This document shows, piece after piece, positions 11,232-36,433 of a stretch of DNA of 64,000 nt. Under the pieces are notes generated by a model that was not told where the DNA came from, did not search any database, and saw only the letters and a program-made list of their open reading frames with translations. The first letter of the stretch is position 1, and each line of letters begins with the position of its first letter. Location of the stretch: assembly GCF_044324875.1 (NCBI RefSeq), contig NZ_CP172185.1. One strand, 5' to 3'. The stretch is from Escherichia coli. GTDB taxonomy: Bacteria; Pseudomonadota; Gammaproteobacteria; Enterobacterales; Enterobacteriaceae. Made by a program: the position numbers and the translations under genes.

Positions 11232-12350
11232 ATGACTGGAGATAACACCCTCATCCATTCTCACGGCATTAACCGTCGTGATTTCATGAAGCTTTGTGCA
11301 GCATTAGCCGCCACCATGGGGTTAAGTAGCAAAGCCGCTGCAGAGATGGCCGAATCGGTTACTAACCCGCAGCGTCCGCCAGTTATCTGGATTGGCGCGC
11401 AGGAGTGCACCGGTTGTACGGAATCTCTGCTTCGTGCAACGCATCCAACGGTAGAAAACCTCGTGCTGGAGACTATCTCTCTGGAATATCACGAAGTGCT
11501 TTCCGCCGCCTTCGGTCATCAGGTCGAAGAGAACAAACATAACGCTCTCGAGAAGTACAAAGGGCAGTATGTGTTAGTGGTGGATGGTTCCATCCCATTA
11601 AAAGATAATGGTATTTATTGCATGGTTGCCGGTGAGCCGATTGTGGATCACATCCGCAAAGCGGCGGAAGGCGCAGCAGCCATTATCGCTATCGGTTCCT
11701 GCTCTGCGTGGGGCGGTGTTGCCGCGGCTGGGGTTAACCCAACTGGCGCGGTCAGTCTGCAAGAAGTTCTGCCAGGCAAAACTGTAATCAACATTCCTGG
11801 CTGCCCGCCGAACCCGCACAACTTCCTCGCGACCGTTGCGCACATCATCACTTACGGCAAACCACCGAAGCTGGATGATAAAAACCGTCCGACTTTCGCC
11901 TACGGTCGTCTGATTCACGAACACTGTGAACGTCGCCCGCACTTCGATGCTGGTCGCTTTGCGAAAGAGTTCGGCGACGAAGGCCACCGTGAAGGCTGGT
12001 GCCTGTACCACCTCGGCTGTAAAGGGCCAGAAACTTACGGCAACTGCTCAACGCTGCAATTCTGCGACGTTGGCGGCGTGTGGCCGGTGGCGATTGGTCA
12101 CCCGTGCTATGGCTGTAACGAAGAAGGTATCGGCTTCCATAAAGGCATCCATCAGCTTGCCAACGTCGAAAACCAGACTCCGCGTTCACAGAAACCGGAC
12201 GTTAACGCTAAAGAAGGCGGCAACGTCTCTGCAGGCGCTATTGGTTTGCTCGGCGGTGTGGTTGGGCTGGTTGCCGGTGTCAGCGTGATGGCGGTGCGTG
12301 AACTGGGTCGTCAGCAAAAGAAAGATAACGCTGACTCACGGGGAGAATAA
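11232..12350 (+). CDS. hybO: hydrogenase 2 small subunit (Tat-exported)
   Basis: 372-aa ORF; twin-arginine signal RRDFMK near N-terminus; Cys-rich FeS cluster motifs. Confidence 0.95.
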
Positions 12351-12352
12351 CC

Positions 12353-13339
12353 GTGAACAGACGTAATTTTATCAAAGCAGCCTCCTGCGGGGCATTGCTG
12401 ACGGGCGCGTTGCCGTCTGTCAGTCATGCGGCTGCTGAAAACCGCCCGCCAATTCCGGGATCGCTGGGGATGTTGTACGACTCGACCTTGTGCGTTGGCT
12501 GCCAGGCTTGCGTCACCAAGTGTCAGGATATCAATTTCCCTGAACGTAACCCGCAAGGGGAACAGACCTGGTCGAACAACGACAAACTGTCGCCGTATAC
12601 CAATAACATCATTCAGGTGTGGACCAGCGGCACAGGGGTCAACAAAGACCAGGAAGAGAACGGCTACGCGTACATTAAGAAACAGTGTATGCACTGCGTC
12701 GATCCGAACTGTGTCTCCGTGTGTCCGGTCTCTGCGCTGAAAAAAGATCCGAAAACCGGCATTGTCCATTACGACAAAGATGTGTGCACTGGCTGCCGTT
12801 ACTGCATGGTCGCCTGCCCATACAACGTGCCGAAGTACGACTACAACAACCCATTTGGTGCGCTGCATAAGTGTGAACTGTGCAACCAGAAAGGTGTGGA
12901 ACGTCTTGATAAAGGCGGTCTGCCTGGCTGCGTAGAAGTGTGCCCGGCGGGCGCGGTGATTTTTGGTACGCGTGAAGAGCTGATGGCTGAGGCGAAAAAA
13001 CGTCTGGCGCTGAAGCCAGGCAGCGAATACCACTATCCGCGTCAGACGCTGAAATCTGGCGACACTTACCTGCATACGGTGCCGAAATATTATCCGCATC
13101 TGTACGGCGAGAAAGAGGGCGGCGGTACTCAGGTTCTGGTACTGACGGGTGTGCCTTATGAAAATCTCGACCTGCCGAAACTGGACGATCTTTCTACCGG
13201 TGCGCGTTCCGAAAATATTCAACACACCCTGTATAAAGGCATGATGCTACCACTGGCTGTGCTGGCGGGCTTAACCGTGCTGGTTCGTCGCAACACCAAA
13301 AACGACCATCACGACGGAGGAGACGATCATGAGTCATGA
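12353..13339 (+). CDS. hybA: hydrogenase 2 ferredoxin-type 4Fe-4S subunit
   Basis: 328-aa ORF, GTG start, Tat motif RRNFIK, several CxxCxxCxxxCP motifs. Confidence 0.95.
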
Positions 13340-14507
13340 TCCACAACCGCTGGGCGGCAAAATCATCAGTAAACCGGTCATGATTTTTGGACCGTTAATC
13401 GTCATCTGTATGCTCCTGATTGTGAAGCGTCTGGTGTTCGGTCTGGGCTCTGTCTCTGACCTGAACGGCGGCTTCCCGTGGGGCGTGTGGATCGCGTTTG
13501 ACCTGCTGATTGGCACCGGCTTTGCCTGTGGCGGCTGGGCGCTGGCGTGGGCGGTATACGTCTTTAACCGTGGGCAATACCATCCGCTGGTGCGTCCGGC
13601 GCTGTTGGCGAGTCTGTTTGGTTACTCACTGGGTGGCTTGTCGATCACTATCGACGTGGGTCGCTACTGGAACCTGCCGTACTTCTACATTCCGGGTCAC
13701 TTCAACGTGAACTCGGTACTGTTCGAGACGGCGGTCTGTATGACCATCTATATCGGCGTGATGGCACTGGAGTTTGCTCCGGCACTGTTTGAACGTCTGG
13801 GCTGGAAGGTGTCGCTACAGCGTCTGAACAAGGTGATGTTCTTCATCATTGCACTTGGCGCGCTGCTGCCGACTATGCACCAGTCTTCAATGGGGTCGCT
13901 GATGATCTCGGCGGGCTACAAGGTGCATCCGTTGTGGCAGAGCTATGAAATGTTGCCGTTGTTCTCGCTGCTGACGGCGTTCATCATGGGCTTCTCGATT
14001 GTCATCTTTGAAGGTTCGCTGGTGCAGGCGGGTCTGCGTGGCAACGGTCCGGATGAAAAGAGTCTGTTCGTTAAGCTGACCAACACCATCAGTGTGTTGC
14101 TGGCGATTTTCATCGTGCTGCGCTTTGGCGAGCTTATCTATCGCGACAAGCTGTCGTTAGCGTTTGCCGGTGACTTCTATTCCGTGATGTTCTGGATTGA
14201 AGTCCTGCTGATGCTCTTCCCGCTGGTCGTTCTGCGTGTGGCGAAGCTGCGTAATGATTCCCGCATGCTGTTCCTGTCAGCACTGAGCGCGCTGTTAGGT
14301 TGTGCAACCTGGCGTCTGACCTATTCGCTGGTGGCATTCAACCCGGGCGGCGGTTACGCCTACTTCCCGACCTGGGAAGAACTGTTGATTTCTATTGGTT
14401 TTGTGGCTATTGAGATTTGCGCTTACATCGTACTCATTCGTCTACTGCCGATACTTCCTCCTTTAAAACAAAACGATCATAATCGTCATGAGGCGAGCAA
14501 AGCATGA
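13329..14507 (+). CDS. hybB: hydrogenase 2 integral membrane (cytochrome b-type) subunit
   Basis: 392-aa polytopic ORF overlapping hybA stop by 11 nt. Confidence 0.93.
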
Positions 14508-22616: not shown

Positions 22617-23309
22617 CTAGTGATAACCACGCGCGGTCATAAAATCCGTAATCGCTTTTTCTGCATCAACCAGCACCTTTTCCAGTGGCTGATTGGCATC
22701 GATATCAACCAGTTGTGCACCACCAAAGGTTAACTGTGGCGTTATTGCAATCTTCCTCGCCAGCGATTCCCGTTTATGGTCGGGTTTACGCGCGCAGGCA
22801 ACTTCAAGGTCAACATTGAGTTTGATGACCAGATCAGGTTTATGGCTCGCCATCCAGTGAAACGCTTTACGTTCCTGGCTTGCCAGCCATGAGACAAACC
22901 GGCCGCCTTCAACGTTAGGCGGGAACACTGTACCATCGTAAGCGCCAGGAATTTGGTCCTGAGGATAACGGTCGGTTAGAACAATTAACCCGCGACGACG
23001 ACAGGCAAGCATATGACGAAAGCGCAGTAAGCGACGGGCGACAAACGCTGTAATTACCAGCGCCGGAACAGGGCCAGGCAATTTTTTTGCTGTTTTCACC
23101 TGATTTCGTTCAATTGTTTTATGTAAGGATTTTCCCATCAACGGTAATTTTGTCACTGCACGACCGACATTTCCGGCCTGTTTTCCTAAATGAACTCTTT
23201 CGGCTGCACCATATTTTTCGACAACGGTAATGAGATGTTCACACACCGTTGACTTGCCTGAACCATCGCTACCAATAACGGCAATTAATGGAGGTGTTAT
23301 TGACTGCAT
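22617..23309 (-). CDS. yghT: P-loop NTPase/kinase-like protein of unknown substrate
   Basis: 230-aa ORF; Walker [10 protein letters not shown]; shares DRYPQ and ARKPDH motifs with the two proteins below. Confidence 0.85.
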
Positions 23310-23482
23310 GAATATATCCTTTAATTTAAATATCCATTAAAAATATTTATTTGGTTAATATGTTTTTATGAAAGCGTAATTCAGGTCAATGTCACAATTA
23401 ACCATTGTCACAATAAGGTTGAACGGATATTCTGAGCACGGACCACGTAATATTCAATACATTATTTGCTGCCGGGTTTTTC

Positions 23483-24196
23483 GTGAATCAACGTAATATG
23501 TCAATAATTAATTCCACGCCAGTGCGTGTTATTGCCATTGTAGGATGTGATGGTTCAGGTAAATCGACCCTCACGGCAAGCCTGGTAAATGAACTGGCAG
23601 CAAGAATGCCAACAGAACACATTTATCTCGGGCAATCGTCCGGGCGAATTGGCGAATGGATTTCACAGCTCCCTGTTATTGGCGCACCTTTTGGGCGTTA
23701 TCTGCGAAGTAAAGCGGCACATGTGCACGAAAAGCCCTCAACACCGCCTGGCAATATTACTGCGCTGGTTATCTATCTGCTTTCCTGCTGGCGGGCGTAT
23801 AAGTTTCGCAAAATGTTGTGTAAAAGCCAGCAAGGCTATCTGCTCATCACCGACCGCTACCCGCAGGTTGAAGTGCCGGGTTTTCGCTTTGATGGCCCGC
23901 AATTGGCAAAAACCACGGGCGGTAACGGTTGGATAAAAATGTTAAGGCAGCGCGAGCTGAAGCTGTACCAATGGATGGCGTCTTATTTGCCCGTATTGTT
24001 GATTCGTCTTGGCATTGATGAACAAACGGCGTTTGCGCGTAAACCTGACCACCAACTGGCGGCGTTACAGGAAAAAATCGCCGTTACGCCGCAACTGACA
24101 TTCAATGGCGCAAAGATCCTTGAACTGGATGGTCGGCAACCAGCCGATGAAATTATGCAAGCGTCACTACGCGCAATTCACGCCGCGCTTTCCTGA
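23483..24196 (+). CDS. yghS: P-loop NTPase/kinase-like protein (paralogue of YghT/YghR)
   Basis: 237-aa ORF (GTG start as printed; alternative ATG 15 nt downstream at MSIINSTP); Walker A GCDGSGKST. Confidence 0.85.
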   Translation: MNQRNMSIINSTPVRVIAIVGCDGSGKSTLTASLVNELAARMPTEHIYLGQSSGRIGEWISQLPVIGAPFGRYLRSKAAHVHEKPSTPPGNITALVIYLLSCWRAYKFRKMLCKSQQGYLLITDRYPQVEVPGFRFDGPQLAKTTGGNGWIKMLRQRELKLYQWMASYLPVLLIRLGIDEQTAFARKPDHQLAALQEKIAVTPQLTFNGAKILELDGRQPADEIMQASLRAIHAALS

Positions 24197-24227
24197 TCAC
24201 CAAAATGGATAGGGGATGATTTAACGA

Positions 24228-24986
24228 ATGGATGCACTACAAACACAAACTGTTAATAGTACAACCGCGCCGCAGCCCAACTACATTCCGGGGCTGATTG
24301 CGGTGGTCGGGTGTGATGGCACCGGTAAATCCACGCTGACCACCGACCTGGTGAAATCGCTGCAACAACACTGGCAAACCGAGCGCCGCTATCTGGGGCT
24401 GCTCTCCGGCGAAGACGGCGACAAAATCAAACGATTGCCGTTGGTTGGCGTCTGGCTGGAACGGCGACTGGCGGCCAAATCCTCGAAAACCCAAAGCATG
24501 AAAACCAAATCTCCAGCGCTATGGGCGGCGGTGATTATGTACTGCTTCTCGCTGCGAAGAATGGCGAATCTACGCAAGGTTCAGCGACTGGCGCAAAGTG
24601 GCGTTCTGGTGGTCAGCGATCGCTTCCCGCAGGCTGAAATTTCGGGCTTTTATTATGACGGACCGGGGATCGGCGTCGAACGTGCGACCGGGAAAATCAG
24701 CATGTTTCTGGCGCAGCGCGAACGGCGTTTATACCAAAAAATGGCGCAATACCGTCCTGAATTAATCATTCGTTTGGGGATTGATATTGATACTGCCATC
24801 TCCCGCAAGCCTGACCATGACTATGCCGAGCTGCAGGACAAAATCGGCGTCATGTCGACGATTGGCTATAACGGCACAAAAATTCTTGAGATTGATTCCA
24901 GAGCGCCCTACAGCGAAGTGCTGGAACAGGCACAGAAGGCGGTTTCTCTGGTTGCCATCGTTTCTGACCGCCGAAGTTTAACTTAA
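24228..24986 (+). CDS. yghR: P-loop NTPase/kinase-like protein (paralogue of YghS/YghT)
   Basis: 252-aa ORF; Walker A GCDGTGKST, DRFPQ, SRKPDH. Confidence 0.85.
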   Translation: MDALQTQTVNSTTAPQPNYIPGLIAVVGCDGTGKSTLTTDLVKSLQQHWQTERRYLGLLSGEDGDKIKRLPLVGVWLERRLAAKSSKTQSMKTKSPALWAAVIMYCFSLRRMANLRKVQRLAQSGVLVVSDRFPQAEISGFYYDGPGIGVERATGKISMFLAQRERRLYQKMAQYRPELIIRLGIDIDTAISRKPDHDYAELQDKIGVMSTIGYNGTKILEIDSRAPYSEVLEQAQKAVSLVAIVSDRRSLT

Positions 24987-25031
24987 GGCTGGCGGGATAC
25001 TTTTTACTATCAACGATAAGGTCAGGCTGAA

Positions 25032-26381
25032 TTGGCGGGTTTTAACATCAAACATTGGTTTGCAGATGGCGCGTTTCGCACCATTATTCGCAATAGCGCC
25101 TGGTTAGGCTCCAGTAATGTCGTGAGCGCCTTGCTGGGTCTGTTGGCGCTCTCGTGTGCCGGTAAAGGGATGACGCCCGCCATGTTTGGCGTACTGGTGA
25201 TTGTGCAATCGTACGCCAAGTCGATCAGCGATTTTATTAAGTTTCAGACATGGCAGTTGGTGGTGCAGTACGGAACACCAGCATTAACCAACAATAATCC
25301 ACAGCAATTCCGCAATGTCGTCTCATTTTCCTTCTCGCTGGATATCGTCAGCGGCGCGGTGGCGATTGTCGGCGGCATTGCCTTACTCCCTTTTCTTTCC
25401 CATTCATTAGGTCTGGATGACCAAAGCTTTTGGCTGGCAGCGCTGTATTGCACGCTCATTCCTTCAATGGCTTCCTCCACGCCGACCGGCATTCTGCGTG
25501 CGGTAGATCGCTTCGACTTAATTGCTGTACAGCAGGCGACGAAACCTTTTCTGCGCGCAGCGGGGAGCGTCGTTGCCTGGTATTTTGACTTTGGTTTTGC
25601 GGGTTTTGTTATTGCCTGGTACGCCTCGAATCTTGTTGGCGGCACCATGTACTGGTGGTTTGCCGCACGTGAATTACGCCGCAGAAATATCCATAACGCG
25701 TTCAAATTGAATCTGTTTGAGTCTGCCCGACACATCAAAGGCGCGTGGAGTTTTGTCTGGTCAACCAACATTGCCCATTCCATCTGGTCGGCGCGTAATT
25801 CGTGCAGCACAGTGTTGGTGGGGATCGTGTTAGGACCCGCTGCCGCCGGGTTATTTAAAATCGCCATGACATTCTTCGACGCCGCCGGAACGCCAGCGGG
25901 TTTACTGGGCAAAAGTTTTTACCCAGAGGTGATGCGTTTAGATCCGCGTACCACCAGACCGTGGTTGTTAGGCGTGAAGTCAGGTTTACTGGCGGGCGGA
26001 ATCGGTATTCTGGTGGCGCTCGCGGTGTTGATCGTCGGCAAGCCGCTCATTTCGCTGGTGTTTGGCGTTAAGTATCTCGAAGCGTATGACCTGATTCAGG
26101 TGATGCTGGGCGCAATTGTGATCTCGATGCTGGGCTTCCCTCAGGAGTCATTGCTATTGATGGCGGGAAAACAGCGCGCTTTTCTCGTGGCGCAAACCAT
26201 CGCCTCAATCGGCTACATCGTATTGCTGTTCATGTTCTGTCATCTGTTTGGCGTGCTGGGGGCTGCATTTGCTTACTTCGGTGGGCAATGTCTGGATGTG
26301 GTGTTCTCGCTAATTCCGACCTTAAAGGCATTTTTTCAGCGCCATTCCTTGCTTTATAACTCAGCCGGAGAGAAATCCTGA
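25032..26381 (+). CDS. yghQ: Wzx/MurJ-like (MOP superfamily) polytopic membrane protein, putative lipid-linked substrate flippase
   Basis: Track ORF is 449 aa with a TTG start; first in-frame ATG about 46 codons in (MTPAMFGVLV). Longer than the 355-aa K-12 YghQ I remember. Start uncertain. Confidence 0.75.
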   Translation: MAGFNIKHWFADGAFRTIIRNSAWLGSSNVVSALLGLLALSCAGKGMTPAMFGVLVIVQSYAKSISDFIKFQTWQLVVQYGTPALTNNNPQQFRNVVSFSFSLDIVSGAVAIVGGIALLPFLSHSLGLDDQSFWLAALYCTLIPSMASSTPTGILRAVDRFDLIAVQQATKPFLRAAGSVVAWYFDFGFAGFVIAWYASNLVGGTMYWWFAARELRRRNIHNAFKLNLFESARHIKGAWSFVWSTNIAHSIWSARNSCSTVLVGIVLGPAAAGLFKIAMTFFDAAGTPAGLLGKSFYPEVMRLDPRTTRPWLLGVKSGLLAGGIGILVALAVLIVGKPLISLVFGVKYLEAYDLIQVMLGAIVISMLGFPQESLLLMAGKQRAFLVAQTIASIGYIVLLFMFCHLFGVLGAAFAYFGGQCLDVVFSLIPTLKAFFQRHSLLYNSAGEKS

Positions 26382-27217
26382 TGATGAGAAAATATTTCCC
26401 GCTTGAGGCGAGCGAGCGTCTATTTGTTGCGATTGAAGAAGATGATGTTGTTGATGCACAGGTCAGTTTGCCGCCGACTATCGCACTAAGTTGTACCACC
26501 GAAATCATCCATGATAATTACGCGTTATGCCTGCAATTCTGGCTCAATGGCGTCAATCGCCAGGAGTTACTGCGTTTAATATGCAAACAGGCCAAAGGCG
26601 ATGAGCTGACTGCTGATGAGCGCAAACAATTTAAATACATGCGAGCGCGCTACAAGCACCTGCGTTTTGCGCAACGGCTGTATTTAAAAAAGCATCAGGC
26701 CGGATTTTTATTCGGCAAAACGACCGTTTTTTTGGGGCGTTTTCAGGACGGCTTTCGTAACGGTAAGAAAAATATTGTGTCGTATTACGGCAACCTGTTA
26801 CGGGTTTATTTAAGCTCTCCGGTCTGGTCGTTGGTGAACTATTCATTACGCCATAGCCAGTTAGAAAGCGTAAGCGGTTTTATTGCCTATCGGCAAAAGC
26901 AAATGCATACCCTGAAAGAGATAATTGCCAAACCGCGACTAACTGGCAGGGAATTTCATGATGTGCGAAAAATCATCAGCCAGCAGGTTTCTTATTACGA
27001 CACCTTAAGATCGCTTGATCCTGAAAATAAAGAGGCGTTACTGATTTCCCGTTTTCTCGCCGCCATTAATGGTCTGATGGGGGATAAGCACGACGACATG
27101 GTGGCGGATGATATGGAAAACCGCCAGTCGTATGATGCACCGGTGGCGCTGGATAGCGATATTCGCCAGCGTTTAGAACTGCTGATTTCGCGTTTCCCAC
27201 TCTATCCGGAGCAATAA
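26381..27217 (+). CDS. hypothetical soluble protein, 278 aa, basic and predicted helical
   Basis: ATG overlaps yghQ stop (ATGA) with GGAGAGAAA Shine-Dalgarno; no family recognised. Confidence 0.6.
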   Translation: MMRKYFPLEASERLFVAIEEDDVVDAQVSLPPTIALSCTTEIIHDNYALCLQFWLNGVNRQELLRLICKQAKGDELTADERKQFKYMRARYKHLRFAQRLYLKKHQAGFLFGKTTVFLGRFQDGFRNGKKNIVSYYGNLLRVYLSSPVWSLVNYSLRHSQLESVSGFIAYRQKQMHTLKEIIAKPRLTGREFHDVRKIISQQVSYYDTLRSLDPENKEALLISRFLAAINGLMGDKHDDMVADDMENRQSYDAPVALDSDIRQRLELLISRFPLYPEQ

Positions 27218-27777
27218 TGCCATCTCGTTGGATTTTCGCTCTGATCATCGCACTCTTAGCGCCAGGCGCGGTGGCACACAATTTCGTCACTGGCAAAACG
27301 GTTACCCCTGTTTATATCCAGGAAGGCGGTGAGTTGCTTCTGAAAAGCGACGACGAAATTCACTACCAAAAGTGGAACAGCACACAGCTGGCGGGAAAAG
27401 TTCGCATTATTCAGTATATCGCCGGGCGTAAGTCGGCGAAGAAAAAGAACTCACTGTTAATTAAAGCGGTTGAAGCGGCAAACTTTCCGCAGGATCGTTT
27501 TCAGCCCACCACCATTGTGAACACCGATGATGCCATTTTTGGTACTGGCTATTTTGTCGTTGGCAAAATCGAAAAAAATAAACGCCGCTATCCGTGGGCG
27601 CAATTCGTTATTGACGGCAATGGACAGGGACGCGTTGCCTGGCGGTTGCCGGAGCAGAGTTCAACCATTCTGGTGCTGAATAAAGACGGGCAAATTCAGT
27701 GGGCAAAGGACGGCAGCCTGACGCCGGAAGAGGTAGATCATGTCATTGCGCTGGCGCAGAAACTGATCAATGAATAA
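27217..27777 (+). CDS. secreted/periplasmic protein, YtfJ-like, 186 aa
   Basis: N-terminal signal peptide MPSRWIFALIIALLAPGAVA; start overlaps previous stop (TAATG); resemblance to YtfJ is from memory. Confidence 0.55.
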   Translation: MPSRWIFALIIALLAPGAVAHNFVTGKTVTPVYIQEGGELLLKSDDEIHYQKWNSTQLAGKVRIIQYIAGRKSAKKKNSLLIKAVEAANFPQDRFQPTTIVNTDDAIFGTGYFVVGKIEKNKRRYPWAQFVIDGNGQGRVAWRLPEQSSTILVLNKDGQIQWAKDGSLTPEEVDHVIALAQKLINE

Positions 27778-27807: not shown

Positions 27808-28878
27808 ATGAAGCTGGTTGAACACTACATCATGCGTGGTACGCGCCGTCTGGTGTTGATTATCGTCGGTTTTCTGATCTTTATTTTCGCCAGCTACTCC
27901 GCACAGCGTTATCTGACCGAAGCGGCAAATGGGACATTAGCTCTTGATGTTGTGCTGGATATCGTTTTCTACAAAGTGCTGATTGCACTGGAGATGTTGT
28001 TACCTGTTGGACTGTATGTGTCAGTTGGCGTGACGCTAGGGCAGATGTATACCGATTCGGAAATTACCGCTATCTCTGCGGCGGGGGGCAGTCCGGGACG
28101 CTTGTACAAAGCCGTTCTTTATCTGGCGATACCGCTAAGTATTTTTGTCACCCTTCTGTCGATGTATGGTCGTCCGTGGGCTTATGCGCAGATTTATCAA
28201 CTGGAGCAACAGTCACAGTCGGAGCTGGATGTTCGCCAGTTGCGGGCAAAGAAATTTAACACTAACGATAACGGACGAATGATCCTTTCCCAGACGGTTG
28301 ATCAGGATAATAATCGCCTGACTGACGCGCTGATTTATACTTCTACTGCCAATCGAACCCGCATTTTCCGCGCCCGTTCGGTTGATGTGGTTGACCCATC
28401 TCCCGAGAAACCGACCGTTATGTTGCACAACGGGACAGCCTATCTTCTCGATCATCAGGGGCGTGACGACAACGAACAGATCTACCGTCATCTGCAATTA
28501 CATCTGAATCCGCTGGATCAAAGCCCTAACGTCAAACGCAAAGCGAAATCGGTCACGGAGCTGGCGCGCTCCGTCTTTCCAGCCGATCATGCCGAACTGC
28601 AATGGCGACAAAGCCGTGGCCTGACAGCATTGTTGATGGCGCTGCTGGCCATTTCATTAAGTCGGGTAAAACCGCGGCAAGGGCGATTTTCAACATTATT
28701 GCCACTGACGTTGCTGTTTATTGCCATTTTTTATGGCGGCGACGTCTGCCGTACGCTGGTGGCTAACGGCGCGATTCCCCTCATTCCTGGTTTGTGGTTA
28801 GTACCCGGACTCATGCTAATGGGCCTGCTGATGCTGGTCGCACGCGACTTCTCTTTGCTGCAGAAATTTTCCCGATGA
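27808..28878 (+). CDS. YjgP/YjgQ-family permease (LptF-like paralogue)
   Basis: 356-aa ORF with N-terminal TM cluster, long periplasmic middle region and C-terminal TM helices, the LptF/LptG architecture. Confidence 0.7.
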   Translation: MKLVEHYIMRGTRRLVLIIVGFLIFIFASYSAQRYLTEAANGTLALDVVLDIVFYKVLIALEMLLPVGLYVSVGVTLGQMYTDSEITAISAAGGSPGRLYKAVLYLAIPLSIFVTLLSMYGRPWAYAQIYQLEQQSQSELDVRQLRAKKFNTNDNGRMILSQTVDQDNNRLTDALIYTSTANRTRIFRARSVDVVDPSPEKPTVMLHNGTAYLLDHQGRDDNEQIYRHLQLHLNPLDQSPNVKRKAKSVTELARSVFPADHAELQWRQSRGLTALLMALLAISLSRVKPRQGRFSTLLPLTLLFIAIFYGGDVCRTLVANGAIPLIPGLWLVPGLMLMGLLMLVARDFSLLQKFSR

Positions 28879-29954
28879 ATGTTTTCAGTCGCTATTTAAT
28901 CCGTCATCTCTTTCTCGGTTTTGCCGCCGCCGCAGGGCTATTGCTGCCGCTTTTTACCACCTTCAACCTGATTAACGAACTGGATGATGTCAGCCCGGGT
29001 GGTTATCGCTGGACTCAGGCGGTGCTGGTGGTGCTGATGACCTTACCGCGCACACTGGTCGAACTTTCGCCGTTTATCGCATTATTGGGAGGGATTGTTG
29101 GCCTGGGGCAGTTATCGAAAAACAGTGAGCTTACCGCCATTCGCAGCACGGGGTTTTCTATCTTCCGTATTGCACTAGTGGCGCTGGTTGCCGGGATATT
29201 TTGGACTGTTTCGTTAGGCGCGATAGATGAGTGGGTGGCGTCGCCATTGCAGCAACAGGCGCTGCAAATCAAATCGACTGCCACCGCGTTGGGGGAGGAC
29301 GATGACATTACCGGCAATATGCTTTGGGCCAGGCGCGGTAATGAATTTGTGACGGTGAAATCGCTGAACGAGCAGGGCCAGCCTGTGGGCGTGGAGATAT
29401 TTCATTATCGCGACGATCTCTCGCTCGAATCCTACATTTTTGCACGCAGTGCCTCCATTGAAGACGACAAAACGTGGATCCTGCATGGTGTGAATCATAA
29501 AAAATGGTTGAATGGCAAAGAAACGCTGGAAACATCAGATAATCTTGCCTGGCAATCGGCCTTCACCAGTATGAATCTTGAAGAGTTATCGATGCCGGGA
29601 AATACTTTTTCTGTCCGTCAACTTAATCATTACATCCATTATTTGCAGGAAACTGGGCAACCCAGCAGCGAATACCGCCTTGCACTGTGGGAAAAACTGG
29701 GACAACCCATCCTGACCCTGGCGATGATTTTGCTGGCTGTGCCGTTTACCTTTAGTGCCCCGCGTTCGCCTGGGATGGGTAGCCGTCTCGCTGTAGGCGT
29801 CATCGTGGGCTTACTTACCTGGATCAGCTATCAAATCATGGTCAATCTGGGATTGCTATTTGCGTTGAACGCACCTGTTACCGCGCTCGGTTTACCGGTA
29901 GCGTTTGTGCTGGTGGCGTTGAGCCTGGTGTATTGGTATGACAGACAACATTAA
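28875..29954 (+). CDS. YjgP/YjgQ-family permease (LptG-like paralogue)
   Basis: Track ORF 28794..29954 is over-extended; start MNVFSRYLIRHLFLGF overlaps the upstream stop (ATGA), giving 359 aa with LptG-like topology. Confidence 0.7.
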   Translation: MNVFSRYLIRHLFLGFAAAAGLLLPLFTTFNLINELDDVSPGGYRWTQAVLVVLMTLPRTLVELSPFIALLGGIVGLGQLSKNSELTAIRSTGFSIFRIALVALVAGIFWTVSLGAIDEWVASPLQQQALQIKSTATALGEDDDITGNMLWARRGNEFVTVKSLNEQGQPVGVEIFHYRDDLSLESYIFARSASIEDDKTWILHGVNHKKWLNGKETLETSDNLAWQSAFTSMNLEELSMPGNTFSVRQLNHYIHYLQETGQPSSEYRLALWEKLGQPILTLAMILLAVPFTFSAPRSPGMGSRLAVGVIVGLLTWISYQIMVNLGLLFALNAPVTALGLPVAFVLVALSLVYWYDRQH

Positions 29955-29988: not shown

Positions 29989-31161
29989 TTACTGCTTCAG
30001 AGTAGCGAACGCTTGAATGATGGCATCAATTTGCTCACGACTGTGGGCAGCGTTTACGCTACAGCGCAGCAGCGTGATGCCTGCAGGCGCGGCAGGTGGC
30101 AGGATAAGATTCACATAAACGCCCAGCGAAATAAGCTCGCGCCAGATGCGTAAACCTTCCTCTTTCGAACCGATTATTACTGGCACTACCGGGCTAATAT
30201 GTGAACTTAACTCATAACCCAGTTTTTGCAGACCGTCATACAGATGGTTGGCATTATCCATCAGCTTTTGCCGCAACTCTGGTTGTGTAGCAATGGTTCT
30301 TAACGACGAGCGCACGGTCGCAATGCAGGACGGAGAAGGAGAGGCGGTAAAAATATACGGGCGGCTGCCGTAGCGCAGCACTTCCATCGCTTCCGAACCG
30401 ACAGCAAAACCGCCAATCGAGGCCAGACTTTTACTGAAAGTACCAACGATAATATCCACATCATCTTCAACGCCAACGGCTTCAGCCAGTCCGCGCCCCG
30501 TTGCGCCTAACACGCCAAACGAATGCGCTTCATCGACAATCAAATAACCACCGAGACGACGTTTGATATCAACAATTTCCGCCAGCGGCGCAACGTCACC
30601 GAGCATACTGTAGATGCCTTCAACGATGATAATCGCCTCTTTTGCCCGTTCACCGAGGCGAACCATGCGCCGTTCCAGATCTTTAGCATCGTTATGGCGG
30701 AAACGAATAATTTCCGCGCCACCGAGAGAACAGGCGTCATAAATACTGGCGTGGCTGTCGGCATCCAGTAACACCACGGCGTTATGGTCGGCAAGTGCGC
30801 TGATGACGCCTAAATTAGCGGTATAACCGGTTGAAAAAACGATAGCGGTAGGGCGATTAAAAAACTCGGCGATCTCTTTCTCTAACGCCAGATGCGGCGC
30901 ATAACTGCCGTTTGCCATACGAGAACCGGTGGTGCCGGTGCCTTGGGCCGCTAACGCTGCCTGACCTTCGGCGATGGCATCATGATTGAAGGTTAATCCG
31001 AGATAATTATTGGTCCCGGCCAGAATCACTTTTTTATTGCCGATCCGGCCTTCGGTGGCGGAATACACTTCATCAATACAGGTACCAAACGGCGTTAACC
31101 CGTTGTCACTAAATTGCAGTCGCTCGCCAGCAAGACGCGCATATTTATCGTATAGCCCCAT
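29989..31161 (-). CDS. PLP-dependent alpha-oxoamine synthase, serine-palmitoyltransferase-like
   Basis: 390 aa; motifs DEAHSFG and VGTFSKSLASIGGF (PLP lysine about residue 244, codon near 30430..30432). Confidence 0.8.
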   Translation of the reverse strand: MGLYDKYARLAGERLQFSDNGLTPFGTCIDEVYSATEGRIGNKKVILAGTNNYLGLTFNHDAIAEGQAALAAQGTGTTGSRMANGSYAPHLALEKEIAEFFNRPTAIVFSTGYTANLGVISALADHNAVVLLDADSHASIYDACSLGGAEIIRFRHNDAKDLERRMVRLGERAKEAIIIVEGIYSMLGDVAPLAEIVDIKRRLGGYLIVDEAHSFGVLGATGRGLAEAVGVEDDVDIIVGTFSKSLASIGGFAVGSEAMEVLRYGSRPYIFTASPSPSCIATVRSSLRTIATQPELRQKLMDNANHLYDGLQKLGYELSSHISPVVPVIIGSKEEGLRIWRELISLGVYVNLILPPAAPAGITLLRCSVNAAHSREQIDAIIQAFATLKQ

Positions 31162-31409
31162 TATTTATTCTCCAGCCATGGAAGTAGTGTTTCCATTAAT
31201 TGCGCAGGGGTTTTGACATCCAGCAGAATATTAATAGGAATGGAAATATCGAATCTGTCTTCCAGCATCATTAAGAGATCCATCACTTTGATCGACTCCA
31301 GGCCAAGATCGTTGACGAGATCGCTGTCGGGCTTAATTTCCACACCGTTTTCGACCAAATCCTGTAAACAGGAAAGGATGTAATCCATTACTATTTCACG
31401 ATTTACCAT
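31161..31409 (-). CDS. acyl carrier protein (dedicated, 82 aa)
   Basis: Small acidic protein with DLGLESIKVMDL (candidate phosphopantetheine serine); stop overlaps the downstream synthase start. Confidence 0.7.
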   Translation of the reverse strand: MVNREIVMDYILSCLQDLVENGVEIKPDSDLVNDLGLESIKVMDLLMMLEDRFDISIPINILLDVKTPAQLMETLLPWLENK

Positions 31410-31440: not shown

Positions 31441-32355
31441 TCAAAATAGCCCGTTGCGTAATGCGTGTTCCAGGCTAATCCCGGGAAACCAATTAATATC
31501 TTCAGAAATACGGTTATTACTTGCTGACCAGTCGGCGTGGGTTAATTCACGGATTTTCGAGCGGGTCAGCATAGGTTCTTTACCTGCCAGGCGACTCAAC
31601 GTGGTACTGATATCCGCAAGGCAGGTGAGTACCGACAGAGGAATACCAACCATTCGAACGGAACCACAACGGGCGTCGGCGGCAAGCTGTCTTACGCGTT
31701 GCCAGTCATAGCCGCCGGCGACGCCATCGCATAATTCATAGGTTTGCGTCTGTACAGTTTCGGCGCTTAACCACTGCCCCACGGCTTGCGCGAAATCGGT
31801 GACGTGCAGGAAAGAGAGCTGTGTATCTGGCGCACCAAGTCGTGGCAGTAGGCCGCGCAGCATCCAGTCAAACAGCGGTTTTAACTCTTTATCGCCGGGA
31901 CCATACACGGCTGTCGGGCGAAAAATGCCCAGCGTAATTTCGTCAGCCATTGCGGTCAGTCGTTGTTCGGCGACGTGTTTGGAATTTGCGTACCAGGAGA
32001 GTTCGGGATGGCGCGCCGCCAGCGAAGAGATAAACAGAAAACGTTGGCAAAAGCCGCTCTCTTTTGCCGCTTGCATCAGGCGCAGGCTGCCGTCAACGTT
32101 ACAGCGGGTAAAAATCTCTTCTTTGTGTCCGCGCACTTGTCCGGCGCAATGGACCACCGCGCTGGCTCCGGCAACCAGTTCGCTAAGCGAATGTGTATCT
32201 TCCAGCGAACCGCGCACCCAGATGAGATTATCATTGACGTGAGCGCGGGCAGTACGCGTCAATGCGCGAACGTGAAAGCCGCGGGCGAGCAGGTTATCGA
32301 TAATATATTTACCGATAAACCCGGTAGCGCCCGTCACCGCGACAGTTTGATTCAT
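31441..32355 (-). CDS. NAD(P)-dependent epimerase/dehydratase-family (extended SDR) oxidoreductase, putative keto-reductase
   Basis: 304 aa; Rossmann VTGATGFIGKYI, catalytic YANSK; start overlaps upstream ligase stop by 4 nt. Confidence 0.75.
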   Translation of the reverse strand: MNQTVAVTGATGFIGKYIIDNLLARGFHVRALTRTARAHVNDNLIWVRGSLEDTHSLSELVAGASAVVHCAGQVRGHKEEIFTRCNVDGSLRLMQAAKESGFCQRFLFISSLAARHPELSWYANSKHVAEQRLTAMADEITLGIFRPTAVYGPGDKELKPLFDWMLRGLLPRLGAPDTQLSFLHVTDFAQAVGQWLSAETVQTQTYELCDGVAGGYDWQRVRQLAADARCGSVRMVGIPLSVLTCLADISTTLSRLAGKEPMLTRSKIRELTHADWSASNNRISEDINWFPGISLEHALRNGLF

Positions 32356-34073
32356 GCCAGGGATTCCTGCACATGAAGGCTTGCAGCATAAGCCTTCTGA
32401 TAGCGTTTTTTCGCTTCCGCACGGGCAGGCTTGCCGGAGGACGTTCGGGGAATACTGTGGGGCGGCAACAGATCGATAGCCGCGGTCACGCCAAATTCGC
32501 TTTGGATCCGTGCTGCCAGCGCGTGGATAAGCTGCCCGCGACGTTCTTCATCGCTGATCCGACACTGGATCTGCAAAATGATTTTTTCCTGGGCGGTAAC
32601 AAAAGCAATCGCATCGCCAGAATGAATTTCCGGTTCCTGTTCCGCAATATATTCAATATCTTGCGGCCAGATATTGCGGCCACGAATAATAATCAGATCT
32701 TTAATGCGTCCGGTGACATACAGATAACCGTCCAGCAGATAACCGAGGTCGCCGGTGTCTAACCAGCCCGTCGCGGCAATCTCGTCTTGTGAAATCTGGT
32801 CGCCAAAGTAACCGCTCATCAGGCTAGGGCCGGAGATGCAAATATGGCCTACCACACGTTCCGCGACAGGTATACCTGCTTCATTGCGGATTTCAATGCC
32901 ATGTTCCGGCAACGCTTTACCGCAGTTGACGAAAGTCGATACGGCGCGTGTTTCAGCATCCGGCGCGACGGCTTTGCCCTGATATTCGAGGATGTCGCGA
33001 TCCACTTCGTTAACCACAACCCCGGAAGCTTCATCAGAGAAGCTGACAGCCAGCGCATTTTCTGCCAGTCCGTAGCACGGCATGAACGTTTTATCGTCAA
33101 AGTTAACCTGACGAAAACATTCAGCGAATTGATGGAGTTGTTCTGCGGAGATCGGTTCTGCGCCAATACCAGCGACGCGCCAGCAGGAAAGATCCAGTTC
33201 AGCGAGATCTTTTTCATTCACGCGGCGCTGGCACAATTCATAGCCAAACGGCGGCGCAACGGAAACGGTGCCGCGATTTTTACTGATCAATTTAAGCCAT
33301 TGCAGAGGACGCATGGCAAAATCCTGAGTGCGCAAATAATCTACTGAGAGCTGCGTGGCGACGGGGGTCAGGAGAAAGCCGACCAGTCCCATATCATGGT
33401 AGAAAGGCAGCCAGGAGACGCAGCGGTCGCCAGGGCGTAATTTAATGCCATCGTGGCTTATAGCACGTAGATTAGCCATCACTTCGCGATGGGTGATAAT
33501 GACGCCACGGGGAAAACGGGTGCTGCCGGAGGTGTACTGGAGGTAGGCGATATCGTTCGGAACTGGACGCTGGAGTGCAACATCGGCTTCCGGTAATGCC
33601 TTAAACCAGGCGTGGCTTAAAACATGTAATTCGGGTTTGTTATGCGTCGCGGCATTGACCAGCGGTAACCACTCATCACCAGTGATAATGGCTGCGGGCT
33701 GGCAACTTGCCAGTAAACCCTGCAGTTTGGCGCTCCAGGAATCCCGCTGACCGACGCCCATTGGAATCGCCAACGGGACGGCGACTAAGCCGGCATACTG
33801 GCAGGAAAAAAAAGCCTCTACGAACCCGCTACTGGTTTCGGCAATCAGCGCCACGCGATCGCCTTTTTTCAGGTTCAGCGATAACAACCGCTTCGCACCA
33901 GCTTCGGCACGCGCTTTTAACGTCTGATATTCCAGTTGATCTTCAAGTTGGCAACGTCTGTCATAAAAATTCATTCCGGCGCTACTCAGAGCGGCGTAGT
34001 CCAAAGCATCAACCAGCGTTGGAAAATCGGCATAGCGCATAGGTAGGGAATGCGTAAAGATTTTATTAGACAT
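32352..34073 (-). CDS. fatty acyl-AMP ligase / acyl-ACP synthetase-type adenylating enzyme
   Basis: Track ORF 32352..34100 (582 aa); AMP-binding motif YTSGSTRFPRGV. Start uncertain (candidates at 34100, 34073, 34040); 34073 ATG chosen. Confidence 0.75.
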   Translation of the reverse strand: MSNKIFTHSLPMRYADFPTLVDALDYAALSSAGMNFYDRRCQLEDQLEYQTLKARAEAGAKRLLSLNLKKGDRVALIAETSSGFVEAFFSCQYAGLVAVPLAIPMGVGQRDSWSAKLQGLLASCQPAAIITGDEWLPLVNAATHNKPELHVLSHAWFKALPEADVALQRPVPNDIAYLQYTSGSTRFPRGVIITHREVMANLRAISHDGIKLRPGDRCVSWLPFYHDMGLVGFLLTPVATQLSVDYLRTQDFAMRPLQWLKLISKNRGTVSVAPPFGYELCQRRVNEKDLAELDLSCWRVAGIGAEPISAEQLHQFAECFRQVNFDDKTFMPCYGLAENALAVSFSDEASGVVVNEVDRDILEYQGKAVAPDAETRAVSTFVNCGKALPEHGIEIRNEAGIPVAERVVGHICISGPSLMSGYFGDQISQDEIAATGWLDTGDLGYLLDGYLYVTGRIKDLIIIRGRNIWPQDIEYIAEQEPEIHSGDAIAFVTAQEKIILQIQCRISDEERRGQLIHALAARIQSEFGVTAAIDLLPPHSIPRTSSGKPARAEAKKRYQKAYAASLHVQESLA

Positions 34074-34444
34074 ATACACCACGAAAAAATTGGATATCAA
34101 AAATAAAATGACAATAATGCGGTGGATTATATAGGCATAAAAGATAAATGAGATAGTATTTTCATCAGTGTGAAAATGAACATTGATTTAAATAATGAGT
34201 TTGAGTTTTTTTGTTTTTATTGTGAATGATATTTAATTTATGAATGTATTAAGAAGAAGCCTTGTCCGGTCGCCTTAAATCGACAAAAGGCATTGTGGCG
34301 CTTCTGTGTAGTCTCTGACCTTATCGTAATCATTAATAAATACTATTTATTCGTCGTTTGTATTCATTGGGTTGATTATTAAGGTGCCGTTCGTTGCTGT
34401 TGCAACCTGTTTGTCACCGTTAATTATTTGTTACCCACAGAACT
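34074..34444. promoter_or_regulatory. AT-rich divergent control region between the ligase operon and yghO
   Basis: About 370 bp non-coding and strongly AT-rich, between divergently oriented starts. Confidence 0.45.
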
Positions 34445-35587
34445 ATGGAATGCGATCTGCTGATGATTAAAATTGAAAAAGTAATTAATAAAAATGACCT
34501 TAAGGCATTTATCGCTTTTCCGTCATCACTTTATCCCGACGATCCAAACTGGATACCCCCTTTATTCATTGAACGCAACGAGCATTTGTCTGCGAAAAAT
34601 CCGGGGACGGACCATATCATCTGGCAGGCGTGGGTGGCAAAAAAAGCAGGGCAGATAGTTGGGCGTATTACCGCGCAAATCGATACCTTGCACCGCGAGC
34701 GTTACGGCAAAGATACCGGTCATTTCGGCATGATTGACGCCATTGATGATCCGCAGGTTTTTGCCGCGTTGTTTGGCGCAGCGGAAGCGTGGTTGAAGTC
34801 ACAAGGTGCAAGTAAGATCAGCGGTCCTTTCAGCCTGAATATCAATCAGGAAAGCGGATTACTGATTGAAGGTTTCGATACACCACCCTGTGCGATGATG
34901 CCACACGGCAAACCGTGGTATGCCGCGCATATTGAACAATTGGGTTATCACAAAGGCATTGATTTACTGGCGTGGTGGATGCAGCGAACCGATCTCACTT
35001 TCTCTCCGGCCCTAAAAAAACTGATGGATCAGGTGCGCAAAAAAGTGACCATTCGCTGCATCAATCGCCAGCGGTTTGCCGAAGAGATGCAGATCCTGCG
35101 TGAGATTTTCAACTCTGGCTGGCAGCATAACTGGGGATTTGTGCCGTTTACCGAACATGAGTTCGCGACTATGGGCGATCAGCTTAAGTACCTGGTGCCG
35201 GACGATATGATCTACATCGCCGAGATTGATTCTGCACCCTGTGCGTTTATTGTCGGCTTACCGAACATCAACGAGGCGATTGCCGATCTGAACGGATCGC
35301 TCTTTCCCTTCGGCTGGGCAAAATTGCTGTGGCGTTTAAAAGTCAGCGGTGTGCGAACTGCGCGAGTACCGCTGATGGGCGTGCGGGACGAGTATCAGTT
35401 TAGCCGCATCGGCCCGGTGATTGCGCTGTTATTGATTGAAGCCTTACGCGATCCGTTTGCCCGCCGGAAGATCGATGCGCTGGAAATGTCATGGATCCTC
35501 GAAACCAATATAGGCATGAATAACATGCTGGAACGCATTGGGGCGGAGCCGTACAAGCGTTACCGATTGTATGAAAAGCAGATTTAA
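34445..35587 (+). CDS. yghO: YghO-family protein, predicted acyl-CoA N-acyltransferase-like fold (intact here)
   Basis: 380-aa ORF MECDLLMIKIEKVINKNDLKAFIAFPSS... adjacent to glcC as yghO is in K-12; fold assignment is from memory. Confidence 0.65.
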   Translation: MECDLLMIKIEKVINKNDLKAFIAFPSSLYPDDPNWIPPLFIERNEHLSAKNPGTDHIIWQAWVAKKAGQIVGRITAQIDTLHRERYGKDTGHFGMIDAIDDPQVFAALFGAAEAWLKSQGASKISGPFSLNINQESGLLIEGFDTPPCAMMPHGKPWYAAHIEQLGYHKGIDLLAWWMQRTDLTFSPALKKLMDQVRKKVTIRCINRQRFAEEMQILREIFNSGWQHNWGFVPFTEHEFATMGDQLKYLVPDDMIYIAEIDSAPCAFIVGLPNINEAIADLNGSLFPFGWAKLLWRLKVSGVRTARVPLMGVRDEYQFSRIGPVIALLLIEALRDPFARRKIDALEMSWILETNIGMNNMLERIGAEPYKRYRLYEKQI

Positions 35588-35607
35588 TACCAGATCCTGT
35601 TAAGCGC

Positions 35608-35656
35608 AGGGGCGATCCCTCGCCCCTCGGGGAAAGGGTTAGGGTGAGGGTGAAAA
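35608..35656. repeat. GC-rich palindromic intergenic element between convergent yghO and glcC
   Basis: AGGGGCGA tccc TCGCCCCT perfect dyad followed by GGGGAAAGGGTTAGGGTGAGGGTG. Confidence 0.4.
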
Positions 35657-35662
35657 CTCGGC

Positions 35663-36433
35663 TCACATTCCCACCTTGTTCATCTCCAGCGGCACCGCCG
35701 AGCGAATCAAATGGTGGCCTTCCAGCTCGATATCGTGGAGATTCTTTTTCACGGTCCGCACATGATCGCGTGCTGCGCGCTGGGCGACGTGCGGCAGCCG
35801 CTGCAACACCGCGTTGTAGATCCGCGCATGCTGGCGATCGATCTGCTTTTTTTGCTGTGGTCGATGGTAGAGATTATTTACGCTGGCAAACACTGAATTA
35901 AACATCAGATCGGTCAATGATTGCAGCGTAAACACCAACACCTGATTGTGAGAAGCCTGACAAATGGCGAGATGGAAAGCGTGATCCAACTGCGCATGTT
36001 CGATCAGCGAAATCTCTTTGTTGTTCTCACTGGCGGCGAGCATTTTTTCATAACAGCGGGTTATCACAACAAAATCAGCCTGGGTTCCCAGCGTTGCCGC
36101 AAGCCTTGCCGATTCACCCTCCAGCAATGCGCGAACGTCGAGCAGATCGTACAGCGTTCGCGGCTGCGTGCTGAACAGATGAATTAGCGGGCTGGTGTCC
36201 TGCACCCGATTAAGCCGTGCGACACGAGAATCGCGACCCTGCGCCGTTTCAATAATCCCGCGCCCGCGCAGCACGGTCAGCCCTTCACGCAGTGCGGAGC
36301 GTGAGAAGCCGAGCTTTTCACACAGTCGACGTTCCGAGGGAAGCGGCTGACCGACCTTCAGTACGCCGTCGATAATTAACCGTTCGATACTCTCTGCAAC
36401 CACTTCGCAAATAGGGCGACGTTCATCTTTCAT
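35663..36433 (-). CDS. glcC: GntR/FadR-family transcriptional activator of the glycolate operon
   Basis: Start MKDERRPICEVVAESIERLIIDGVLKVGQPLPSERRL (codon 21 of track ORF). Confidence 0.9.
   Translation of the reverse strand: MKDERRPICEVVAESIERLIIDGVLKVGQPLPSERRLCEKLGFSRSALREGLTVLRGRGIIETAQGRDSRVARLNRVQDTSPLIHLFSTQPRTLYDLLDVRALLEGESARLAATLGTQADFVVITRCYEKMLAASENNKEISLIEHAQLDHAFHLAICQASHNQVLVFTLQSLTDLMFNSVFASVNNLYHRPQQKKQIDRQHARIYNAVLQRLPHVAQRAARDHVRTVKKNLHDIELEGHHLIRSAVPLEMNKVGM

Follow-up and report, generated by a model that had tools for sequence, protein, structure and literature searches.

An intact yghO gene of Escherichia coli is predicted to encode a tandem-GNAT ceramide synthase within a sphingolipid island that is disrupted in K-12

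The gene yghO was analyzed in a window of 64,000 nucleotides, which is the whole stretch of DNA taken from the E. coli contig NZ_CP172185.1 (assembly GCF_044324875.1). It occupies positions 34445..35587 of the plus strand and consists of an intact open reading frame with an ATG start, which encodes a protein of 380 amino acids, exactly as a sequence-only reading of this DNA had stated. Using positions 34100-35700 as a query, a sequence with 100% identity was found in E. coli ChlosBP-23-1, for which RefSeq gives the name 'protein YghO'; as outlined below, the product is predicted to be a bacterial ceramide synthase. Homologs from other genera are almost all 374 amino acids long, and the same length is obtained for the E. 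coli protein when it is read from the ATG at position 34463 (M7). An alignment of the 5' regions of six genera revealed that this ATG is invariant in Escherichia, Pseudocitrobacter, Hafnia, Pluralibacter, Serratia and Erwinia; the upstream ATG at position 34445 is restricted to Escherichia, and an AAGG motif is located 5' of the ATG at 34463 in most of the six genera. In view of this invariance of the M7 codon, the conserved YghO protein starts with the residues MIKIEK.

YghO belongs to a large protein family. Representatives of 6,480 clusters formed at 50% identity match the protein at E<=1e-3, and 1,122 of them still do so at E<=1e-30. The matches align end to end, and nearly all of them have a length of 370-390 amino acids. 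The number of matching cluster representatives, their uniform length and the end-to-end alignment show that yghO is a real gene. In an alignment of 82 diverse family members, 50 columns are conserved at >=85%, and YghO keeps the consensus residue in all 50, among them R301, G306, E341, W344, N349, K365 and Y367.

A spacer of 371 bp (34074..34444) separates yghO from a gene on the minus strand, whose start is placed at position 34073 by RefSeq and at position 34100 if the longest open reading frame is considered. Windows within this spacer have a GC content of 33-37% compared to about 50-55% in the flanking genes. Thus, the divergent pairing of yghO with the ligase operon across an AT-rich region, which had been noticed before, is readily seen. 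It had further been proposed that both units share a divergent promoter region. The AT-rich spacer and the gene orientation agree with this proposal, but a simple sigma-70 consensus scan for promoter-like sites in 34074-34444 performed no better than on shuffled sequence, so that the spacer is presumed from its position only to be the promoter region of yghO and the ligase operon. A terminator scan of the same spacer also gave results no better than those for shuffled sequence.

The divergent operon consists of four genes on the minus strand, and the same island has been studied in E. coli BL21(DE3) by Padilla-Gómez et al. 2022 (PMC9386255). The first gene (32352..34073) encodes a fatty acyl-AMP ligase homologous to AasR, which scores 873 bits against NF006624 (cut-off 600); AasR of BL21 (ECD_02851) was shown to acylate its cognate acyl carrier protein AcpR (PMC9386255). 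It is followed by a gene for a short-chain dehydrogenase/reductase (SDR) of the NAD-dependent epimerase/dehydratase family (31441..32355), which was recognized by its open reading frame and family matches, is a homolog of CerR (CC_1164), the ceramide reductase of Caulobacter, and is listed as 'epi' (ECD_02852) in the BL21 study (PMC9386255). The third gene (31161..31409), an open reading frame with matches to acyl carrier protein (ACP) families, codes for a dedicated ACP homologous to AcpR, and ECD_02853 (AcpR) of BL21 was shown to carry 4'-phosphopantetheine (PMC9386255). The last gene (29989..31161), named 'spt' by RefSeq, encodes a serine palmitoyltransferase (Spt), which reaches 598 bits against NF047599 with a curated NCBI cut-off of 500. 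The Spt of E. coli B makes 3-oxo-sphinganine and prefers acyl-AcpR (PMC9386255).

Further genes of the island are located on the far side of spt. Second copies of lptF (27808-28878) and lptG (about 28875-29954), both on the plus strand, were identified with scores of 318 bits against TIGR04407 and 305 bits against TIGR04408, respectively, and are candidate exporters of the island lipid. Next to them lie an open reading frame for a YtfJ-family protein (27217-27777), a hypothetical open reading frame of 278 amino acids (26381-27217) and yghQ (25032-26381), whose product has a weak match to MOP flippases. These are followed by yghR (24228-24986), yghS (23483-24196) and, on the minus strand, yghT (22617-23309); the three products have weak matches to P-loop kinases resembling dTMP kinase. 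In Serratia and in about 10 of 80 genomes of other species, the genes between 22617 and 27777 are conserved together with the cluster. Possible roles for this group are head-group addition and flipping, with membership in the system suggested by position only. In Caulobacter, the lipid kinase CpgB contains the ATP-binding motif GGDG, which also occurs in eukaryotic ceramide kinases; YghR, YghS and YghT show only weak P-loop, dTMP-kinase-like matches and were rejected as counterparts of CpgB.

The distribution of yghO within the species was determined with a query of 1.6 kb, which comprises the 5' end of the ligase gene, the spacer and yghO. A match to at least 80% of this query exists in 4,136 of the 5,426 complete genomes of E. 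coli. An intact island for predicted ceramide synthesis, with its own LptF/G paralogs and a putative head-group/flippase module, is present in about three quarters of the complete E. coli genomes, and it is also found in many other Enterobacterales. In strain 21AH057, yghO was lost through an IS1-associated rearrangement, and the operon was kept.

In E. coli K-12, the predicted ceramide system is destroyed by an IS5-associated deletion, which includes the 5' end of yghO. Homology to K-12 starts at position 34485 of the window, and the terminal repeat of IS5 lies immediately upstream, abutting codon 14. The missing sequence starts within yghQ and extends to codon 13 of yghO. As a consequence, neither the native promoter of yghO nor its first 13 codons are present in K-12, the lipid operon is missing entirely, and the N-terminal domain of the remaining yghO product is devoid of its first beta strand. 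The sequence-only reading had referred to yghO of K-12 as annotated as a pseudogene. Its disruption by IS5 is in line with this statement; however, two K-12 records list a plain CDS that carries no pseudogene flag. In NC_000913.3, the CDS has a length of 390 amino acids and is annotated as 'putative DNA-binding transcriptional regulator YghO', and a PGAP record contains a CDS of 378 amino acids named 'protein YghO'; both start inside IS5.

In a family search with YghO, there were zero Pfam matches even at E<=10 and zero NCBIfam matches, and a sequence search of the PDB returned chance-level matches only. The GNAT assignment therefore rests on the predicted structure and on weak profile matches. 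An AlphaFold2 model, for which the alignment of 82 sequences was used as input, has a mean pLDDT of 96.5 and a pTM of 0.93. It predicts two consecutive alpha/beta GNAT domains of the soluble type and contains no transmembrane segments. The best Foldseek matches of the model in the PDB are tandem-GNAT N-acyltransferases with E values of 1e-15 to 1e-11, TM scores of 0.55-0.63 and identities of 10-13%. The top structures are 2wpw/2wpx, 5kf1, 7q3a and MshD (2c27/1ozp), and a Foldseek probability of 1.00 was obtained for many GNAT structures, with both YghO domains being covered. An acyl-CoA N-acyltransferase fold had been proposed for YghO, together with a structure prediction against the GNAT and FemAB folds as a means to check it. 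The prediction bears this out: an acyltransferase fold was detected, GNAT structures ranked first, and VipF, Eis and FemX ranked below the tandem GNATs, with FemX aligning to the model at an E value of about 5e-9 and TM scores of 0.44-0.46. Membership in the FemAB/FemX group was rejected, as the structural match lies below those of the acyl-CoA-dependent tandem GNATs and the FemAB Pfam signature is absent in YghO; only one of the 82 family members reaches FemAB_like, with an E value of 0.087.

The family as a whole contains a faint GNAT signal. PF00583 is reached by 6 of the 82 members at E<=1e-3 and by 27 at E<=0.1, with YghO itself remaining unmatched. The last ~70 positions of the family profile (about 305-374) align with GNAT motif A/B of the structure 3tt2 (E 0.0047), and the profile also aligns with the GNAT structure 2ge3 (E 0.037). 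These profile alignments place the putative thioester-binding positions in the C-terminal domain, which would thus hold both the acyl-thioester binding site and the catalytic positions. Thioester binding would involve a loop around R308-G317, followed by E341, W344 and N349.

The closest link to a characterized pathway is provided by Caulobacter. A search seeded with a Caulobacterales homolog recovered relatives from Phenylobacterium and from metagenomes, CC_1154 not being among them. A homolog from Phenylobacterium (Caulobacteraceae), which was used as a proxy for the Caulobacter protein CC_1154, is 45% identical to YghO over 374 amino acids (E 9e-106). For CC_1154 itself, an identity of 44% to ECD_02850 at 98% coverage (E 1e-107) has been published (Table S2 in Padilla-Gómez et al. 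2022, PMC9386255). In the same study, yghO of E. coli BL21 (ECD_02850) is listed as the ortholog of CC_1154, the acyl-CoA N-acyltransferase 'aca', and it was suggested that it makes dihydroceramide (PMC9386255). As this E. coli gene was assigned in print in 2022, the assignment of yghO as the CC_1154 ortholog is already known as a published prediction. In BL21 producing AcpR, AasR and Spt, compounds were observed that co-migrate with sphinganine and ceramide, and the authors credited the intrinsic ECD_02852 and ECD_02850 with their formation (PMC9386255). In Caulobacter, the ortholog of YghO (CC_1154) is needed for ceramide formation. A search of the literature returned no biochemical or mutant study of E. 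coli YghO and no report of native sphingolipid production by this species. The bacterial ceramide synthase (bCerS) counts as a convergent solution in the literature, for instance in the title of a paper by Stankeviciute et al. 2022. The likeness between YghO and bacterial ceramide synthases had been described as an analogy in the sequence-only reading. The relationship stands, but the term is too weak, since an identity of 44-45% makes the proteins truly homologous.

The genomic neighborhood of yghO points in the same direction. One genome per species was scanned with a 17-member alignment, which resulted in 80 loci with homologs of 41-95% identity. Spt is encoded within 10 kb of the YghO homolog in 42 of these 80 genomes, all four operon genes are present within this distance in 33, and the ligase gene is directly divergent from the homolog in 28. 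LptF/G-like genes are found within 10 kb in 53 genomes. At least one cluster gene lies within this distance in 73 of the 80 genomes, and five of the seven exceptions are contigs under 10 kb. In Serratia liquefaciens, the layout with yghO divergent from the ligase, SDR, ACP and Spt genes is the same; other genes are located on the yghO side, where a diacylglycerol kinase gene is found in place of glcC. In Nitrosomonas, the YghO homolog adjoins lptF/G paralogs, and spt is located elsewhere; the published gene numbers Neut_1100 and Neut_0458-0461 agree with such a split locus (PMC9386255). Since spt is not adjacent in Nitrosomonas and some other genomes, yghO and spt are frequently neighbors, though not in every genome. 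The linkage to spt, ACP, ligase and SDR genes recurs in Enterobacterales, Pseudomonas and beta-, alpha- and deltaproteobacteria with varied flanks. Fused proteins were found as well. In P0190 (940 amino acids), a fatty acyl-AMP ligase and a YghO-family domain are part of one chain, and A0A9E6RH89 from AlphaFold DB (752 amino acids) is 42% identical to YghO and annotated as an LptF/LptG-family permease; with about twice the length of YghO and a permease annotation, the latter looks like a fusion of YghO with LptF/G.

Based on orthology, fold, conserved residues, synteny and these fusions, we infer that YghO is probably a long-chain-base N-acyltransferase and the E. coli ortholog of bCerS, also referred to as CerS or Aca (CC_1154). 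The earlier proposal that YghO N-acylates the amino-lipid made by the neighboring operon is likewise favored by the score of Spt, the homology to CC_1154 and the recurrent pairing with the operon. In the proposed pathway, the ligase would activate a free fatty acid and load it onto the dedicated ACP, and Spt would condense the resulting acyl-ACP with serine to 3-oxo-sphinganine; both reactions have been demonstrated in biochemical work with the proteins of E. coli B (PMC9386255). YghO would then acylate the free amine of the long-chain base with a second fatty acyl group, for which acyl-CoA is the probable donor, and the SDR would reduce the 3-keto group, thereby yielding dihydroceramide. Homology, fold and conserved gene order suggest the latter two steps for E. 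coli. It is more speculative that YghQ and the LptF/G paralogs might flip and export the product.

Even for Caulobacter, two groups disagree on whether N-acylation comes before or after reduction, and this open dispute leaves room for a variant of the pathway, in which YghO does N-acylate a long-chain base, but uses the dedicated acyl-ACP as donor or acts after the reduction, as in the eukaryotic order. We regard this variant as rather unlikely, though it is the most serious competitor. P0190, a natural protein that combines a YghO-family domain and a fatty acyl-AMP ligase, would be compatible with an acyl-ACP donor, and rhodobacterial Spt enzymes prefer acyl-AcpR over acyl-CoA (PMC9386255). 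However, the fusion indicates a common pathway rather than the donor that is used, the best structural relatives of YghO are acyl-CoA-dependent, and positions of a CoA-binding motif are detectable. Regarding the order of steps, localization data from Caulobacter favor acylation before reduction.

In a second reading, YghO is a GNAT that lies next to the operon by chance and has an unrelated amine as its acceptor; a lysine residue of a protein, an amino sugar or an antibiotic could serve as such. The substrates of the top matches among solved structures are indeed amino sugars, mycothiol precursors or proteins, and yghO of K-12 was one clone in a candidate screen for lysine acetyltransferases (PMC6199490). 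The K-12 clone in this screen, however, lacks the native N-terminal strand. An incidental position is also difficult to reconcile with the linkage to spt, ACP, ligase and SDR genes that recurs across proteobacterial groups with differing flanks, with the fusions to a fatty acyl-AMP ligase and apparently to an LptF/G permease, and with the requirement of the Caulobacter ortholog for ceramide formation. This reading is therefore considered improbable. The idea that YghO binds DNA and regulates transcription of the divergent operon, as given in NC_000913.3 and several UniProt entries, draws on annotation strings only ('putative DNA-binding transcriptional regulator', 'DNA-binding protein') and on a divergent gene layout that is typical of regulators, and it is highly improbable, as no helix-turn-helix or other DNA-binding family was found in Pfam and NCBIfam and the two predicted GNAT domains would account for the whole chain. 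The database labels 'transcriptional regulator' and 'dATP pyrophosphohydrolase', which are attached to YghO or its homologs, find no support in fold or domain content.

If YghO acts as a long-chain-base N-acyltransferase, the consequences reach beyond a single gene. In teaching, E. coli, which serves as the reference organism in the study of envelope lipids, is presented as free of sphingolipids. This picture derives from K-12, the strain in which the island was removed by the IS5-associated deletion, and most natural E. coli isolates keep an apparently complete ceramide pathway. It is tempting to speculate that wild E. coli makes a sphingolipid that has not been described so far and exports it to the outer membrane under conditions that are not reproduced in the laboratory, with YghO performing the committed N-acylation and possibly being fed by a dedicated acyl-ACP; we consider this scenario conceivable, but would not expect it to hold in full. 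A demonstration that YghO works as proposed would settle the lipid identity of the island and provide a tractable host in which to address which of the disputed steps of the bacterial pathway comes first. It would also open the question of whether the LptF/G paralogs form a dedicated export route for sphingolipids. To the published prediction, the present analysis adds the model with two GNAT domains, the start codon conserved across genera, the precise position of the IS5 junction in K-12, the synteny counts for 80 species and the fusions with a ligase and, apparently, an Lpt permease.

YghO and Caulobacter bCerS (CC_1154) belong to the same length class, share about 44-45% identity over the full length and have the same family-conserved residues. 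The partners in E. coli are also those of Caulobacter, namely Spt, a dedicated ACP, a ligase of the acyl-ACP synthetase type and an SDR, and in both organisms second copies of LptF/G are encoded nearby; the Caulobacter sphingolipid cluster contains second copies of LptC, LptF and LptG (LptF2/G2) together with a candidate flippase (PMC11324152). In contrast to Caulobacter, the five ceramide genes of E. coli form one tight divergent unit. Furthermore, the flanking head-group candidates of E. coli are YghQ and the P-loop proteins YghR, YghS and YghT rather than a CpgABC set, and due to this difference, the final lipid may not be the same in the two organisms.

Two GNAT domains per chain are also found in MshD (1ozp/2c27), the glucosamine N-acetyltransferase of Clostridium acetobutylicum (5kf1), a tandem GNAT of the clavulanate pathway (2wpw) and MAB_4324 (7q3a). 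These proteins acetylate soluble amines. YghO exceeds them in length by 50-70 residues, and its two expected substrates are long-chain lipids. FemX and other FemAB-type transferases, which depend on aminoacyl-tRNA, likewise have a double GNAT-like fold, but YghO is structurally closer to the acyl-CoA-dependent tandem GNATs. The eukaryotic ceramide synthases of the Lag1/CerS type are membrane proteins with a TLC domain, and the reaction proposed for YghO, the acyl-CoA-dependent N-acylation of a sphingoid base, is the same. The fold of YghO, however, is unrelated to that of Lag1/CerS: it is predicted to be a soluble alpha/beta GNAT and matches no membrane protein family.

The island includes a second copy each of lptF and lptG (27808-29954; also L021-L027 and L061, about 11900-14200). 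LptF/G-like genes lie within 10 kb of a homologue of YghO, the predicted bacterial ceramide synthase, in 53 of the 80 species genomes surveyed; this also applies to Nitrosomonas, although spt is located elsewhere there. Furthermore, AlphaFold DB contains a protein of 752 amino acids with 42% identity to YghO, A0A9E6RH89. Its annotation is that of an LptF/LptG-family permease, and it appears to be a fusion of a YghO-like protein with such a permease. The proximity of these genes and the apparent fusion suggest that the lipid predicted for the island has an Lpt-like export route of its own.

Two further proteins came from the search of cluster-representative homologues. P0190 (940 amino acids) is a natural fusion, in which a YghO-family domain (residues 3-374) is followed by a fatty acyl-AMP ligase (residues 386-933). 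In P0121 (784 amino acids), two separate stretches match the YghO query, a pattern suggestive of a tandem pair of YghO-like units. Database labels for the family vary and include "dATP pyrophosphohydrolase", "DNA-binding protein", "DNA-binding transcriptional regulator" and "N-acetyltransferase"; a dedicated model is absent from both Pfam and NCBIfam despite thousands of members. For the ligase encoded next to yghO, the longest ORF starts with TTG at 34100 (582 amino acids), whereas the RefSeq start is placed at 34073 (573 amino acids).

The surroundings of yghO (34445-35587, plus strand) differ between genomes. Serratia liquefaciens carries a gene for a prokaryotic diacylglycerol kinase (L003/L004, 11354-11716) directly downstream of its yghO homologue and in the same orientation, in the position held by glcC in E. 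coli. E. coli 21AH057 has lost yghO and the glc genes through an IS1 insertion with rearrangement (L086, 9001-9750), and the divergent ligase-SDR-ACP-spt operon and the lptF/G paralogues are kept; this strain is a natural yghO-minus, operon-plus genotype. In the window, yghO and glcC are convergent, and the 75-bp spacer between their stop codons (region 35594-35662) contains a G-rich element at 35636-35654. Its sequence, GGGTTAGGGTGAGGGTGAA, is present only once in the window. Since the match to the window stops at about 35585-35593 in most E. coli genomes, this element is strain-variable and probably represents a small repeat insertion.

The genes yghT, yghS, yghR and yghQ, together with those for a 278-aa protein and a YtfJ-family protein (22617-27777), travel with the ceramide genes in Serratia and in about 10 of the 80 genomes. 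yghQ encodes a MOP flippase, and no family was found for the 278-aa protein. yghT, yghS and yghR encode P-loop proteins that are paralogues of one another and give weak dTMP-kinase-like matches. These three proteins were considered as counterparts of CpgB, the ceramide kinase and head-group enzyme of Caulobacter; however, the E. coli proteins are not homologous to this enzyme, and the E. coli lipid may therefore carry a head group different from that of Caulobacter.
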